Shown here: piece after piece, positions 12,903-16,606 of the stretch | Layout: every line of letters starts with the position of its first letter | Numbering within the stretch: the stretch's first letter is position 1 | Sequence record: OR924452 | Reading direction: 5' to 3' (one strand) | DNA from: Escherichia phage 241 | Length of the DNA stretch: 64,000 nt | Made by a program: the position numbers and the translations under genes | Notes under the pieces: generated by a model | The model's database searches: none | What the model was told of the DNA's origin: nothing | Seen by the model: only the letters and a program-made list of their open reading frames with translations

Positions 12903-12990
12903 CGTTGGGAGAGTGCGTCGGGAATCGAACCCGAAACCGTCAGGACAATGAAAAGCTATTGCATTTCACCTTGCATATCCTCCGGCTTTC
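12903..12990 (-). other. tRNA-like 3' module (T-arm plus acceptor strand plus CCA) without a canonical 5' half
   Basis: T-arm TCGGG-TTCGATT-CCCGA then GCACTCT-C-CCA, but no complementary 5' acceptor strand within 90 nt. Confidence 0.3.
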
Positions 12991-13068
12991 TTAACTTCCT
13001 TAACCCCAGATTGTTATGAAGTCGGCATGCACACCTTCTTCATCTTCAGGAAGTCACACTCATTGTTC

Positions 13069-13144
13069 TGGTTGCTTCAACTGGATTCGAACCAGTGACC
13101 TCTCCCTTATCAGGGGAACGCTCTACCTACTGAGCTATGAAGCA
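13069..13144 (-). tRNA. tRNA-Ile (anticodon GAT), CCA encoded
   Basis: Hand-folded cloverleaf: acceptor TGCTTCA/TGAAGCA, D-arm GCTC-AGTAGGTA-GAGC, anticodon loop CTGATAA, T-arm ACTGG-TTCGAAT-CCAGT, discriminator A plus CCA. Confidence 0.85.
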
Positions 13145-13146
13145 AT

Positions 13147-13215
13147 TTGGTGCCCGTTAGAGGAGTTGAACCTCAGCACTCTGGTGATCAACCCAGAGAG
13201 TCGCGCCTCATCTAT
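13147..13215 (-). other. tRNA-like element with T-arm and a 6-bp stem / 8-nt loop hairpin; not a canonical tRNA
   Basis: GGTTCAACTCC T-loop-like motif and CTCTGG-GTTGATCA-CCAGAG hairpin; no matching acceptor stem found. Confidence 0.25.
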
Positions 13216-13498
13216 TTGATGGTCAATTTGGGTCTTGCAAAACCTTTACTGACCGTCTACAAACAGACTGCTTGACCGAGCGTAATTTGGACGGGCTTCA
13301 CACCCGATTGTGCATTTGATCTGCCGTAGCCCAACTCCCCGCGCCGAAGCGCCGATTGGTTAACTGGCACCAGTGCCTTCTGGTTCGATCTCCTGTAACT
13401 TTACAGGCTTTGCGCCCGACCATTTCTGGAAGTTGAGGCATCGTTTCCGATGTGGAGTCCCCTCATTTTACACAGCTGGCTGCAACGCTTACCGTGTT

Positions 13499-13582
13499 TG
13501 GTGTGAGTGGATGGATTCGAACCACCGCGCTGTTACGGGGAGATTTACAGTCTCCTGCATTCGACCGCTCTGCCACACTCAC
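13499..13582 (-). tRNA. tRNA-Tyr (anticodon GTA), type II with long variable arm, CCA encoded
   Basis: Acceptor GTGAGTG/CACTCAC perfect; D-arm GCA-GAGCGGTCGAA-TGC; anticodon stem GGAGA/TCTCC with loop CTGTAAA; 12-nt variable arm; T-arm GGTGG-TTCGAAT-CCATC. Confidence 0.8.
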
Positions 13583-13588
13583 ATTTAG

Positions 13589-13660
13589 TCTACCGCCGCG
13601 TGCTGGGCCACGCTCGAGGACATCGGCCATCCTTCCTCAGCTAATCCACGCGGCGGTAGA
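13589..13660. repeat. Perfect 14-bp inverted repeat (hairpin, 44-nt loop)
   Basis: TCTACCGCCGCGTG at 13589-13602 pairs with CACGCGGCGGTAGA at 13647-13660. Confidence 0.8.
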
Positions 13661-13826
13661 TTTGGATCAGAGTGTACGGTGTAGCATTCCGCAGGGGTGC
13701 ACCTACTGTAGCCCTTCCACTCTGAAATTGGTGGGTGTTACTTCCGTCGGGTTCAGATTCCGTTCGGCTATTGGACTTCGCTTCAAGAGCTTGTCGTTCG
13801 CGTACTTCGTGCTTACTTGCTTTCGT

Positions 13827-14261
13827 TCACACCCATTGTCTGGTACGTATTTCTTGAATAACTTCGTCAAACAAGAAATCCTTTAACCATTTTACTCCCA
13901 CCACCTGATTATTCTTAGGCGGCGTTACCCTCAATCTAACATTCTTTGGATATTGTTTAGGATCCACCAAGACTTCTGTGCAAGTCTCAGGATGATAGCC
14001 ATAATACAAGTCAACAACATCCGAATGGTAAACCGATTTACATTTACCATTGTAATAATTCGTGGAACTGGCATCAAGAATAAAGGATGCCTTATCTTGT
14101 AAAAGGGTTTTGCATTGTACTTTGTACAAGCGCCCTTCTATATCCAAAACAAAATCATACGGCGCATTATCACCGAAAGGTTGAGAAACTGTTAGCCCCT
14201 GCTCAGTGCATTTGAACAAGAACCTAGTCTCACCTATCATACCCCGTTGTTTCGAATTCAA
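13827..14261 (-). CDS. Hypothetical protein embedded in the RNA island (possible small nuclease; weak)
   Basis: 144-aa ORF; motifs GMIGETRF and YDFVLDIEGRLYKVQCK loosely resemble PD-(D/E)XK nucleases. Confidence 0.45.
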   Translation of the reverse strand: MNSKQRGMIGETRFLFKCTEQGLTVSQPFGDNAPYDFVLDIEGRLYKVQCKTLLQDKASFILDASSTNYYNGKCKSVYHSDVVDLYYGYHPETCTEVLVDPKQYPKNVRLRVTPPKNNQVVGVKWLKDFLFDEVIQEIRTRQWV

Positions 14262-14273
14262 ATTATTCCGCCT

Positions 14274-14498
14274 TTATCCGTGCTTGTTCGCTTCAATTGC
14301 CCTTAATTGAGCATCAGCGTCAGCTTTGGTGTCATGTGTCCCAAGAACCTTCGTCTTGGTGTGGTCAAGGACAACCCACTTGTCGCCTCGCTTTTCAACA
14401 AACTCAACAATCTCTTTGTTGTCAGTAGCGAGGCCATCCCACTCAGCAAGAAACTCACCGAACGTTTTCATCATACTCACCAATCGTTTATTGAACAA
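14274..14498 (-). CDS. Hypothetical small protein
   Basis: 74-aa ORF directly upstream of and co-oriented with the 144-aa ORF. Confidence 0.4.
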   Translation of the reverse strand: MFNKRLVSMMKTFGEFLAEWDGLATDNKEIVEFVEKRGDKWVVLDHTKTKVLGTHDTKADADAQLRAIEANKHG

Positions 14499-14591
14499 CT
14501 GGTTTATTTAGGTGCTCCCGAGGCGGTATTTTAATCCCGCGATCCCATCTCGCCTGTCGTAGACCGGAGCATGCTGACAGTCCAACATATT

Positions 14592-14667
14592 TGGTGACCC
14601 TGGCTGGACTTGAACCAGCGACCAATCGATTATGAGTCGACTGCTCTAACCACTGAGCTACGGGGCC
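14592..14667 (-). tRNA. tRNA-Met (anticodon CAT; elongator Met or lysidine-modified Ile2), CCA encoded
   Basis: D-arm GCTC-AGTGGTTA-GAGC, anticodon loop CTCATAA, T-arm GCTGG-TTCAAGT-CCAGC; acceptor stem has one G-U and one C-A mismatch. Confidence 0.75.
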
Positions 14668-14779
14668 AAAATTGGCGGGGTCTGAGGCTTTTCACCTCAC
14701 CTGCTGGATTGGCCTCCAGCTGTTTGTTCTCTCTGGGGACTCGCTGTCCGGACAGCTGTCCCTTAAACTATCGCCCCTT

Positions 14780-14894
14780 AATTCATATTGCTGTGGGTAG
14801 TACCAAAGCGGAGATTTGGAATCTCTCACCCTATAGCGACCTTTAAACCGTTTGATCAGTCCGATCCAAAGGACTACCCACAGCAATATGAATT
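14780..14894. repeat. Perfect 22-bp inverted repeat enclosing a 71-nt structured loop
   Basis: AATTCATATTGCTGTGGGTAGT at 14780-14801 pairs with ACTACCCACAGCAATATGAATT at 14873-14894; loop has nested hairpins (CCAAA...TTTGG, CCTTT...AAAGG). Confidence 0.85.
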
Positions 14895-15101
14895 TGTTGT
14901 GTCCAATCAAGGACTGTCAACCTTTTATCCCGTTTGTGCATGATCAGTTCATGCAGGCCTCTTTGTGCGCCTCACAGCAACGCGCTTCTGTAGGTCATTG
15001 ACTTGCACCGTAGTCTCACCACAGGCGTTTATTTTTCCAGGGCTTTCCACTTACAAGTCTTAACCAGATCGGGATACGGGCTTGTAAGATCGGATTGGAC
15101 A

Positions 15102-15179
15102 CAACTTTGATGGCTCTAGGACTAAAGATCCCGCGTCACCCATAGACTTGGTTTATAAAATCTAGAGCCATCAAAGTTG
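15102..15179. repeat. Perfect 18-bp inverted repeat (42-nt loop)
   Basis: CAACTTTGATGGCTCTAG at 15102-15119 pairs with CTAGAGCCATCAAAGTTG at 15162-15179. Confidence 0.85.
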
Positions 15180-15560
15180 CAACCAATGTCGCAACTCGCA
15201 CTTCAGCGTCTTCGTCTCGCTTCAGCACTTGTCCTCTACGTTCGGACCAAACGAGGCTGGCCGACAGAAACATAACACCACTCATCACTAGAGCGAGGAT
15301 GTGGTTGATAGCCACGATGTTACGTCTCTGTCGTAGAGTGATCACACTTGTCAGGATGATCACTGTTTTGCGAACTTGAAAATACTGCGCCTGTCTCGGG
15401 TTTCCCCTTAGTTCGGCCTCTCATTGTTCGTCTGGTCAGGGAGCTACCCTTGATGACCAGCTTATTTTGAGATCTTCGCCAGCACCCACTAGTGTCTAGA
15501 ATATGTAGGTGTCGAGGTCTGCAAGGCATTGCCCTATTTCATACAACGCTCTCTCAAGTG

Positions 15561-15694
15561 CGCAAATCGAAGTTCTCTGGGCTTAACAGGTTCGACCCAA
15601 CATGTTGTATATCGCCTAACTTGCTCATGGGACGGACACATCTGTGTACAGACCTTGAGGGTTAAAAGATATACCCAGAGAACTTCGATTTGCG
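15561..15694. repeat. Perfect 21-bp inverted repeat (92-nt loop)
   Basis: CGCAAATCGAAGTTCTCTGGG at 15561-15581 pairs with CCCAGAGAACTTCGATTTGCG at 15674-15694. Confidence 0.85.
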
Positions 15695-15840
15695 TTGTGG
15701 GGGCAAACCCCCACACGGCCACTTCTTTGACAGGGATTGCCAGCCCTGGGGATTCCACTGTTTAAGGCTTTATCCCATAACGCCTGAGGCGCGTTTTAAC
15801 TTATTGAGCTTGCATAACTGCAAACTGATGCGCTGTGAGA

Positions 15841-15973
15841 CACATCTTTGAGGGCACTCAGTGTACAACAGGCTCCGATATTTCATAGGGCATTACTGCC
15901 TCGGATTTAAGTTGCCTTTCTCCTGAAACTCCATGCAGTCTCGCGTCTGACGCGGAATGCCCTCAAAGATGTG
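15841..15973. repeat. Perfect 16-bp inverted repeat (101-nt loop)
   Basis: CACATCTTTGAGGGCA at 15841-15856 pairs with TGCCCTCAAAGATGTG at 15958-15973. Confidence 0.8.
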
Positions 15974-15975
15974 GA

Positions 15976-16097
15976 GCCGTTTTAGGGAGTCGAACCCAAA
16001 TGCTTGGCCAGCGCTGACCTTACATCCCATCTGACTTAGGCAACCCACCTCTGCTACTCAGGAGCTTATCCCCTTTGGACAGTCAGATATAACGGCT
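15976..16097 (-). other. tRNA-like module: canonical T-arm and acceptor 3' strand, matching 5' strand about 120 nt away
   Basis: GGGTTCGACTCCC T-loop; AAACGGC 3' strand could pair with GCCGTTA at 16091-16097 only if about 45 nt of extra sequence is inserted. Confidence 0.25.
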
Positions 16098-16098
16098 T

Positions 16099-16167
16099 TG
16101 GGATTGGAGGAAGGACTCGAACCTTCTCATGTACGCTCCTGATTTCTCAGAAGTAGCCTGCTCCCAT
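16099..16167 (-). other. 69-nt tRNA-like element: acceptor stem, perfect T-arm, encoded CCA, non-canonical core
   Basis: ATGGGAG/CTCCAAT acceptor (one mismatch), T-arm GAAGG-TTCGAGT-CCTTC, discriminator C plus CCA; no recognisable D or anticodon arm. Confidence 0.3.
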
Positions 16168-16512
16168 CGACCTATTAAGTACACGCTCCGCTCATTGTTC
16201 GGCGGGAGCTTATTAATCACACCCTCCCACCTATTGTTAGTGCGCCGAATTTTGTTATGAGGAATCGGAAGACCTCACTGACTTATAGGCTATTACGCCG
16301 CCATCAGAACTTCGGAATCATTAGCAGTTATTTGCTTGGTCAGTTTCTAAAAACCCGCAAAGTCACGCACAACGAAAACGAAAACCTGTTTGAGTCCTAA
16401 ACCTACCTGTCTTGGTCTCACATCGATATGAGTGGCCAGGACTCAAACAGCTTGCCGTTCAGTGAGTTAACTATACTTTGTAACCCGTTATTGATAAAAC
16501 CTTTTATTTTGT

Positions 16513-16606
16513 TGGCGAGGGTGTGGAATCGAACCACACTTCTGAGCGCTACCCCGTGTCACCACCTCACCATCGATTTGCCGGAACTTACGCATCCGGC
16601 CTCGCC
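16513..16606 (-). other. 94-nt tRNA-like element: perfect 7-bp acceptor stem and canonical T-arm, aberrant D/anticodon region
   Basis: GGCGAGG/CCTCGCC acceptor; T-arm TGTGG-TTCGATT-CCACA; internal hairpin CCGGA-TGCGTAAGT-TCCGG; no clear anticodon stem-loop. Confidence 0.3.

Follow-up and report, generated by a model that had tools for sequence, protein, structure and literature searches.

The window analysed here is a 64,000-nucleotide (nt) stretch of the genome of Escherichia phage 241 (sequence record OR924452), in which a sequence-only reading had drawn attention to five tRNA-like 3' modules. They lie in a segment (12780-17220) that belongs to the Ackermannviridae, genus Kuttervirus, is 96.7% identical to Salmonella phage PS5 and is covered to at least 80% by 61 records. 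In the relatives this segment is found between a baseplate-wedge gene and the tail needle/knob genes, and its annotation comprises tRNAs and a few tiny "hypothetical" open reading frames (ORFs), and nothing else. In the window it forms a 4.4-kb RNA island nearly devoid of ORFs, with all features on the minus strand, in the same orientation as the flanking genes.

A pattern scan of the window for the T-arm core GGTTCRANTCC recovered eight matches, all on the minus strand between 12921 and 16535, against an expectation of 0.36 from shuffled sequences (none of 100 shuffles reached eight). Three of these belong to canonical tRNAs (Ile, Tyr and Met) and five to the modules, designated A to E below; every near-consensus T-arm that had been reported was recovered, on a strand that had been left unspecified. 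The extents of the modules were set by finding the strand that pairs with the 3' acceptor strand, which gives the following set of features:

12825-12847, minus strand: intrinsic-terminator-like hairpin with a U-run, which ends the island 58 nt after module A
12906-13061, minus strand: module A, a 156-nt cloverleaf-like tRNA-mimic RNA; its unconstrained minimum free energy (MFE) fold is a four-way junction (z = -2.7)
13069-13144, minus strand: tRNA-Ile(GAU), canonical, 76 nt (ARAGORN; Rfam 72.7 bits)
13148-13296, minus strand: module B, a 149-nt tRNA mimic; the MFE fold of a 157-nt stretch contains the acceptor, a hairpin and the T-arm
13499-13582, minus strand: tRNA-Tyr(GUA), canonical (ARAGORN and Rfam)
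14592-14667, minus strand: tRNA-Met(CAU), canonical (ARAGORN and Rfam)
15972-16096, minus strand: module C, a 125-nt cloverleaf-like RNA (MFE fold)
16099-16167, minus strand: module D, a 69-nt D-armless tRNA-like RNA 2 nt upstream of C (sequence and fold; z = -0.7)
16513-16571 (short form, 59 nt) or 16513-16606 (long form, 94 nt), minus strand: module E (alignment and folds; z = -1.5 for the short form and -2.3 for the long)

The modules adjoin one another and the tRNAs across spacers of 2-7 nt, and their (N)CCA is followed by an A-rich stretch, an arrangement resembling that of tandem tRNAs.

The three tRNAs are the only ones called by ARAGORN at default settings and by Rfam at its gathering threshold. 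None of A to E is called by ARAGORN at default or at the 95% threshold (-ps), and none matches the Rfam tRNA model at E <= 10 (the threshold of the family, RF00005, being 29 bits). The sequence-only reading, which could fold neither a standard D-arm nor a standard anticodon arm by hand and had doubted that these were ordinary tRNAs, is borne out by both programs and by the folds of A to E: the top half of a tRNA is present and the bottom half is absent. Each module has in outline an acceptor of 7 bp, a T-stem of 5 bp closed by a UUCRANY loop, and NCCA at the 3' end, with the exceptions that the acceptors of B and C pair at six positions, that the T-stems of these two are imperfect, that D has a mismatch at 3:70 and that A and E end in UCCCA and AACA, respectively. 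Of the encoded CCA, which had been described as frequent in these elements, B, C and D thus have an exact copy, A has an approximate one and E has none. No module combines a 5-bp anticodon stem and 7-nt loop with a 3-4-bp D-arm. The place of the anticodon arm is taken in A by an arm of ~50 nt, accompanied by an expanded D region, in B by a 6-bp stem with an 8-nt loop, in C by an arm with a tetraloop and in D by a hairpin with a GAAA loop, and E has neither arm. With no 7-nt anticodon loop in any of them and the D-arm replaced or expanded, the earlier suggestion of non-canonical tRNAs is unlikely to hold in the sense of tRNAs that decode.

Matches of the modules to other models are fragmentary: the Rfam tmRNA (transfer-messenger RNA) models align stretches of 13-17 nt at the T-loops and nothing more (E <= 10), and module D scores 17.4 bits with the tRNA-Sec model, the gathering score of which is 47. 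Under relaxed ARAGORN thresholds (80-90%), B is reported as a tRNA with a 4-base anticodon "tgat", A as a tRNA with a 73-nt intron and the long form of E as tRNA-His; the -ps80 run also makes false-positive calls inside an ORF. On these grounds we rejected A as a tRNA-Glu with a 73-nt intron, a call made at -ps90 alone. tRNAs bearing group I or other introns were also rejected, as no intron family was matched and ARAGORN -i at default finds none.

Module A folds into an acceptor stem GAGUGUG/CGCACUC (7 bp) stacked on a 7-bp helix P2 (ACUUCCU/AGGAAGU), a hairpin P3 with the conserved loop AAGGUGUGCAUGCC (13024-13037), an arm P4 with the conserved apex GUGAAAUGCAAUAGC (12955-12969), and a T-arm UCGGG-UUCGAUU-CCCGA followed by the 3' tail UCCCA. 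A segment on the 3' side of the P2 interior, AAUCUGGGGUU, may by its sequence correspond to a D-loop with G18-G19. The module occurs at 24 loci across Kuttervirus, Agtrevirus and Taipeivirus, down to 72% identity. In an alignment of 19 distinct Ackermannviridae sequences, 98.8% of the cells in the helices are paired and 10 of the 35 pairs show compensatory change, as against 42-47% paired cells and at most two compensatory pairs in controls slid by 1-3 columns. A pattern made up of the invariant apex and the T-arm further retrieved A-related RNAs from IMG/VR contigs outside the Ackermannviridae. A covariance model (R1), built from the Ackermannviridae alignment of A alone, scores the copy in the window at 186 bits and the members outside the family at 56-71 bits, with one at 28 bits; the distant relatives fold independently into the same four-way junction. 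In a 25-sequence alignment of A that takes in members from other phages, 96.5% of the cells are paired and 30 of the 35 pairs are compensatory, compared with 43-48% paired cells and 9-15 compensatory pairs in slid controls. These outside members come from Klebsiella SSU5-like phage-plasmids, a contig of a 310-kb (jumbo) phage and other uncultivated phages, the largest group being relatives of the SSU5-like phage-plasmids. In PLSDB the RNA is present, unannotated, in 29 Klebsiella plasmids of ~108-115 kb (e.g., CP027615).

Nothing in Rfam 15 matches the family of module A, which is accordingly a member of an undescribed phage-borne family of tRNA-like RNAs spanning several phage groups. We propose to define it as the "GUGAAAUGCA" family by features all present in A: an acceptor stacked on P2, a P3 loop with GUGCAU, a P4 apex of the form GUGAAAUGCA(A/U/C)AUAGC, a canonical T-arm and a length of 155-160 nt. 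When bacterial genomes were scanned by pattern for RNAs resembling A, most matches were class II tRNAs with GUGAAAUGCA in the D-region, which were rejected. The sole real bacterial match is a 607-bp contig (NZ_JAALLN010000140.1, "Flavobacterium poyangense") carrying an Agtrevirus-type A (155 bits with R1), most likely a case of assembly contamination by phage DNA.

Module B has a 6-bp acceptor (GCCCGU/ACGGGC), a large inserted domain in the position of the D-arm, an anticodon-like hairpin CUCUGG-GUUGAUCA-CCAGAG at 13179-13198, a T-arm UGAGG-UUCAACU-CCUCU with a conserved U.U pair, and a 3' end ACGGGC-A-CCA separated by 3 nt from tRNA-Ile downstream. The hairpin of 6 bp and 8 loop nt, already noticed by eye where the anticodon arm would be, is real: in six variants from Kuttervirus and Taipeivirus all 6/6 pairs of the stem are preserved, with compensatory changes among CUCUGG/CCAGAG, UUCUGG/CCAGAA and UCCCGG/CCGGGG, and all six retain the loop RUUGAUCW. 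The acceptor strands also differ yet pair, as CACGAG/CUCGUG in Vi01 and as ACGGGUU/AACUCGU in IME250, which has a compact 68-nt form. The 83-nt 3' part of B alone has a weak fold (z = -0.9). We considered and rejected B as a degraded tRNA-Ser, the gene that fills its slot in ECML-4, as it is a distinct conserved element sited elsewhere in SPTD1, Vi01 and IME250. A B-related element in an IMG/VR contig is reported by ARAGORN at default as tRNA-???(tgat), and a scan for TTGATCWCC plus a T-arm was uninformative, the chance expectation being comparable to the yield. In LIMEstone1 (locus L010, 5813-5993) the 5' 150 nt of B are present at 92% identity and continue, inside the T-loop, into a different 3' acceptor strand, one also found in ChubbyThor; from such sequences, T-loops appear to act as recombination junctions between modules.

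The conserved loops of A and B have a further peculiarity. The palindrome UGCA occurs in both loops of A, where UGCAU and AUGCA are mutually complementary (12955-12969, 13024-13037); in a divergent family member (L048) the two motifs are swapped yet still complementary. The loop of B (13185-13192) holds the palindrome UGAUCA. Such sequences suggest a loop-loop contact, possibly between P3 and P4 in the case of A, or dimerisation.

In module C, the acceptor GCCGUU/AACGGC is combined with a long arm (UAUCUGACU/AGUCAGAUG) enclosing a branched domain, a second arm with a GCGC tetraloop and a T-arm GGG-UUCGACU-CCC; its 3' end, AACGGC-U-CCA, overlaps the first two bases of a long hairpin, S1 (see below). 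It is 96-100% identical in 15 loci, including that of Taipeivirus IME250, where it is 98.5% identical in a region that is otherwise ~81% identical. Module D comprises an acceptor AUGGGAG/CUCCAAU with a G.A mismatch at 3:70, a 7-bp hairpin with a GAAA loop, a T-arm GAAGG-UUCGAGU-CCUUC and a 3' end CUCCAAU-C-CCA. In module E a T-arm GUGUGG-UUCGAUU-CCACAC is followed by CCUCGCC-A-ACA, without CCA, and a perfect 7-bp acceptor forms in either register, with GGUGAGG (short form) or GGCGAGG (long form) as the 5' partner; a 67-nt form of E is annotated as "tRNA-Ala" in SeKF_19. In PS5 and Vi01 the slot of E is taken by E', an unrelated module of 144 nt. Among 18 relatives, the identity of these modules where present is 99.5% for C, 99.2% for D and 96.8% for E (15 loci), compared with 88-95% for the three tRNAs, 86% for the neighbouring element X (see below) and 83% for the adjacent protein gene.

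Together with the co-oriented clustering of the T-arms (8 against 0.36) and the terminator after A, these observations lead us to favour, with moderate confidence, the reading that each of the five modules encodes a small, stable non-coding RNA with the shape of a tRNA, and is neither a decoding tRNA nor a decaying pseudogene. Taken individually, D and E are tentative members of this set. The earlier label of tRNA-mimic decoys survives in its first part, as a structural description: the acceptor stem and T-arm are kept and the cores are specific to each family. As to their biology, we infer that the modules are expressed, processed and directed at a molecular target. The acceptor stem and T-arm retained by each (along with the D-loop-like UGG in A) are the part of a tRNA that is recognised by RNase P, by the 3' trimming and CCA enzymes and by elbow-binding proteins. 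The island may be transcribed as long precursors, in which the host tRNA-maturation enzymes would cut at the 5' end of each acceptor and trim to the (N)CCA, and RNase III would probably cut the long hairpins; the products would be RNAs of 60-160 nt with a stability like that of tRNAs. The domains that replace the anticodon half are family-specific and have conserved loops (GUGCAU and GUGAAAUGCAAAUAGC in A, UUGAUCA in B). The function presumably resides in these loops, which would use tRNA mimicry to bind a factor of the host or the phage; element X next to the modules points to translation or ribosome-rescue factors as candidate targets.

Several observations weigh against this reading. The 25-sequence alignment of A was fitted to the model, which favours the model's structure. 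Sequence variation in C, D and E is too slight to test for covariation, and their identity could partly come from recent horizontal exchange of cassettes. D is found in only 9 of the examined loci, in two variants; E has two competing 5' partners, and its copy in the window lacks 8 nt (UGGUGCAU) present in relatives. In fold z-score B, C, D and E do not stand out (-0.7 to -1.5), and neither does the real tRNA-Tyr (-0.9); the tails of A (UCCCA) and E (AACA) are not NCCA.

Beyond the modules and the tRNAs, the island contains long hairpins, an endonuclease gene and the element X, again all on one strand:

13589-13660, minus strand: long perfect hairpin S5, ending 6 nt before tRNA-Tyr
13827-14261, minus strand: PD-(D/E)XK endonuclease ORF (Pfam PF11645, E = 1.6e-25)
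14781-14893, minus strand: long perfect hairpin S4
15102-15179, minus strand: long perfect hairpin S3
15562-15693, minus strand: long perfect hairpin S2
15841-15973, minus strand: long perfect hairpin S1, starting inside the CCA of C
16201-16386, minus strand: element X, a tmRNA-like "tag" RNA between E and D, with its tag frame at 16290-16325
16386-16450, minus strand: a further long hairpin, upstream of X

There are at least six long hairpins, with stems of 14-24 bp enclosing domains of 30-100 nt. Between genera, compensatory changes preserve the stems of S3, S4 and S5, and the interiors differ or have been exchanged; the S1 stem of SPTD1 surrounds another interior, one that contains a T-arm. 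Matches of the hairpins to microRNA precursors in Rfam are below threshold and are explained by the long hairpin shape alone. On the strength of their sequences, these hairpins are possible RNase III processing sites or cassette boundaries. The endonuclease ORF occupies the place where PS5, ECML-4, Sa157lw and other relatives carry tRNA-Asn, a gene missing from the window, and HNH or other endonuclease genes are found in the same region of pSal-SNUABM-02, 0507-KN2-1, SP1 and PhaxI. One slot holds either tRNA-Ser or B, another either E or E', and D is present in some phages only. This alternation and patchiness, the LIMEstone1 fusion and the replacement of tRNA-Asn by the endonuclease ORF establish that cassette exchange clearly happens in the region.

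Two further features of the island may be recorded here. The homologue of tRNA-Ile in Det7 (5626-5714) and those at L002 4488-4575 (sense), L004 6181-6268 and L026 7066-7151 are 86-89 nt long, with an insertion of ~13-15 nt; their annotation is either "tRNA-OTHER" or pseudo-tRNA, the latter with mention of a possible 15-bp intron, and none of them is called by ARAGORN. At the upstream edge of the island lies a small ORF of 48 codons with a hydrophobic N-terminus (MFYMMLLLILLIGITCSLLG...; 17011-17157, minus strand), which is 93% conserved and is a hypothetical protein in Vi01, Det7 and others.

The tag frame of element X reads GCU AAU GAU UCC GAA GUU CUG AUG GCG GCG UAA UAG and encodes, in 10 codons, the peptide ANDSEVLMAA followed by two stops located in a hairpin; the SsrA tag of Escherichia coli is ANDENYALAA. 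After the tag come a hairpin with the loop UCUUCCGAUU (16257-16278), the segment UUCGGCGCAC and a hairpin with the conserved loop GGUGUGAUUAAUAA (16201-16231). A 140-nt core of X recurs at 71-83% identity in unrelated phages, namely Schitoviridae (IME11, St11Ph5, Pollock) and siphoviruses (Bas81, VLCpiS13b), as a rule with tRNA genes close by. Its helices show compensatory change in six pairs. The tag exists in 21 distinct nucleotide versions that encode 12 peptides of the form A-N/K-D/E-x-x-V/F/Y-L-A/M/I-A/V-A, always with 10 codons and a stop; nine of the 10 third codon positions are variable, as are four of the first and five of the second, and the other two frames are mostly closed. The core is found, unannotated, in 559 of 5426 complete E. 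coli genomes (~10%), at 150 places on chromosomes and 444 on plasmids; roughly half of what a 16-mer scan for X returned was discarded as chance matches in a protein-coding gene. Rfam at its gathering threshold and ARAGORN at default miss X.

In a lambdoid prophage of E. coli 55989 (NC_011748 2688558-2694683; L178 2900-3350), X lies between the Q antiterminator and holin genes, flanked by two long hairpins (CACAACAGGUAAGAGCA...UGCUCUUAUCGUUGUGG). Downstream of it come a long hairpin and a 125-nt module with acceptor, T-arm and terminal CCA (GUUGUGGUG...GCCGG-UUCGAUU-CCGGC-CGCCACAAC-CCA). A second possible partner for the 3' strand of this module is GUUGUGGC, upstream of X, and their pairing would yield a tmRNA-like RNA of ~385 nt in one piece; relaxed ARAGORN reports the whole 389 nt as a tmRNA, and PGAP annotates none of it. 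In the Klebsiella phage-plasmids an A-family RNA takes this place after X, so that a tRNA-like module is regularly found in the company of X. In the SSU5-like phage-plasmids (IMG/VR L034, L035 and L036, and the Klebsiella plasmids), where the tag is ANDDVVLMAA, the A-family RNA lies ~130 nt downstream of X and ~400 nt upstream of tRNA-Phe and tRNA-Gln, so that the order of tag RNA, hairpin and tRNA-like RNA is repeated.

The association with X raises the alternative that the modules are tRNA-like domains (TLDs) linked to trans-translation, i.e., that modules and X form a non-canonical phage ribosome-rescue device. This could be a split or "leader-type" tmRNA, with a module as its acceptor piece, or an anti-rescue system, in which uncharged mimics akin to a TLD-only tmRNA would titrate SmpB to block host ribosome rescue and X would supply or block the tag template. 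We regard it as unlikely. It draws on the coding-type constraint on the SsrA-like tag, on the siting of X between E and D/C, and on the acceptor and T-arm modules that follow X in the 55989 prophage and, as A-family RNAs, in the Klebsiella phage-plasmids. The Rfam beta_tmRNA model also aligns the T-arm of E and the tag region in permuted-gene order, and relaxed ARAGORN calls a permuted tmRNA across E and X. Mycobacteriophage DS6A has a TLD-only tmRNA, and a similar molecule is reported to inhibit tmRNA, perhaps by titrating SmpB; the tmRNA literature consulted names only mycobacteriophages and Bacillus phage G as phage sources of tmRNA in 2014, and counts 79 unspecified phage sequences in 2025 (PMC4131195, PMC11915505).

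Against this stand several features of the window itself. None of the modules has G3.U70, the determinant of alanine charging in tmRNA: the 3:70 pair is G-C in A, C-G in B (G-C in IME250), C-G in C, G.A in D and U.G (short form) or C-G (long form) in E. No base pairing that joins X to E, D or C was found in the window; no strand in or near X pairs with the 3' acceptors of these modules, each of which has its own 5' partner. A permuted two-piece tmRNA made of E and X was rejected, there being no complementary 5' acceptor strand between E and the tag and only diffuse pairing by RNAduplex. All tmRNA model scores are far under the gathering thresholds (the best being tmRNA_permuted, 21.5 bits against 47), and ARAGORN reports a tmRNA at -ps80 only. 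Moreover, Taipeivirus Croc_ER14 has X and no canonical T-arm module nearby, and A-family RNAs stand alongside X in two phage groups only. If the proposal were true, a hitherto unannotated rescue device would be widespread among enterobacterial phages, both virulent and temperate, and would be present in the lambdoid prophages of ~10% of complete E. coli genomes.

That the modules are tRNA pseudogenes, as had also been suggested, or functionless scars of recombination left by cassette exchange and homing-endonuclease traffic, is in our estimate quite unlikely. The mosaic character of the region, with its alternating slots, is in keeping with such an origin, as are the sequence of LIMEstone1, where the 5' part of B joins another 3' part within the T-loop, the endonuclease genes that several phages carry as insertions in the region (of PD-(D/E)XK type in the window and HNH elsewhere), the patchy distribution of D and the 8-nt deletion in the window's E. 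However, no module aligns over its full length to a canonical tRNA or matches the Rfam tRNA model at E <= 10; a pseudogene should resemble a functional tRNA over its whole length and show uncompensated, lineage-specific decay. For A and B the data do not support a pseudogene, since compensatory substitutions maintain every helix of A and the hairpin of B from genus to genus, and A is conserved even in phage groups unrelated to one another; in the case of C, D and E it is unlikely given that they are more conserved than the adjacent functional tRNAs.

A third possibility, which we consider very improbable, is that acceptor/T-arm units serve as processing punctuation, recruiting RNase P and 3' processing to release X, the hairpin domains and the tRNAs, with the modules as by-products. 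The units do abut (the CCA of C overlaps S1, and D-C, B-tRNA-Ile and S5-tRNA-Tyr are adjoining pairs) and the stems of S3, S4 and S5 are maintained between genera. Yet a minihelix would suffice for this purpose, which leaves the large cores of A and B, with their invariant loops and covarying helices, unexplained, and A is conserved in phages in which it has different neighbours. Finally, a role at the level of DNA, as attachment or recombination sites or homing-endonuclease targets resembling tRNA 3' ends, recalls the use of tRNA 3' halves as classical integration sites, the LIMEstone1 junction at the T-loop and the nearby endonuclease genes, and is nonetheless most implausible, given that Ackermannviridae are virulent, that the covariation of distant 5' and 3' strands points to selection on the RNA fold and that all modules lie on one strand, co-oriented with transcription. 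The covariation and conservation thus make the pseudogene, punctuation and DNA-site explanations less consistent with the data than genes for stable tRNA-shaped RNAs.

Phage tRNA clusters are usually read as aids to codon usage or as spare tRNAs against anticodon nucleases, and the modules invite comparison with several other kinds of tRNA-like molecules. Module B is reminiscent of tRNAs with an 8-nt anticodon loop or without a D-arm in its 6-bp stem and 8-nt loop, in the 4-base anticodon UGAU called by relaxed ARAGORN and in the D-armless 68-nt form of IME250. Unlike such tRNAs, it has a loop without the usual pyrimidine-U at 32-33 or purine at 37, 13 to ~85 nt of unrelated sequence where the D-arm would be, and a conserved U.U in the T-stem, on account of which decoding by B is unlikely. 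The non-coding bacterial Y RNA YrlA has a tRNA-like domain that imitates the T-arm and the D-arm. The ends of YrlA form a Ro-binding stem, whereas those of the modules form an acceptor stem; the Rfam 15 library, which presumably includes the YrlA model, yielded no family match to the modules beyond the sub-threshold tmRNA and tRNA-Sec fragments.

The TMER viral tRNAs (vtRNAs) of MHV68 and the mascRNA of MALAT1 are non-decoding, CCA-ended tRNA-like units with hairpin RNAs directly behind them, which are freed by tRNA-processing enzymes, and mitochondrial transcripts offer the parallel of tRNA punctuation. The direct succession of C and S1, and of S5 and tRNA-Tyr, is similar; these systems differ in being eukaryotic or viral, in using RNase Z and in having a near-complete cloverleaf, and no homology is implied. 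With the TLD of tmRNA and the TLD-only molecule of DS6A the modules share an acceptor and T-arm without an anticodon arm, encoding by a phage, short versions of ~60-65 nt (cf. E and D) and the proximity of an SsrA-like tag template. They differ in the absence of G3.U70 and of a cis pairing that encloses the tag, and in the large extra domains of A, B and C.

Stable tRNA-like RNAs in phage tRNA clusters are already known from phage T4, and its species 1 RNA (rnaC) is the closest described analogue of the modules. The T4 species 1 and 2 RNAs (rnaC and rnaD, or RNAs C and D), of 119-139 nt, lie inside a phage tRNA cluster, on the strand of the tRNAs and within a few nt of one of them. In rnaC a core unlike that of a tRNA is combined with an acceptor-like closing helix, which is imperfect, and with a canonical T-arm (CCGGG-UUCGAAU-CCCGG) close to the 3' end, and rnaD ends in ACCA; the T4 record annotates both only as small, stable RNAs, and to our knowledge they are still without an assigned function. 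Modules A, B and C have this same architecture, i.e., placement in a tRNA cluster on the tRNA strand, a T-arm with a closing helix and a non-tRNA core of ~120-160 nt. The likeness is not one of detectable homology: in the tRNA-cluster locus of T4, R1 scores 12-17 bits, which is the level of ordinary tRNAs, and nhmmer with X has no match. Homology of X or A to rnaD or rnaC was rejected for want of nhmmer or covariance-model support, and a common 3' motif, CGGCGCAC, was left as a coincidence.

Our literature search on Ackermannviridae returned nothing relevant on tRNA-like RNAs or transcriptomes, and the review of the family makes no mention of tRNA; the present families, their number, their spread across phage groups and their association with a tag RNA appear to be undescribed. 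Compared with T4, the Kuttervirus island holds five modules of differing architecture, along with a tag RNA and long hairpins. tRNA-shaped RNAs are therefore no oddity of T4: a family of virulent Salmonella and E. coli phages gives ~4 kb to them, one module family is common to Klebsiella phage-plasmids and a jumbo phage, and the tag template alongside has been missed by standard annotation. These are several families to add to RNA annotation pipelines and, if the RNAs are expressed, the phages would offer tractable E. coli and Salmonella models for the exploitation of tRNA-processing, tRNA-binding or ribosome-rescue factors.

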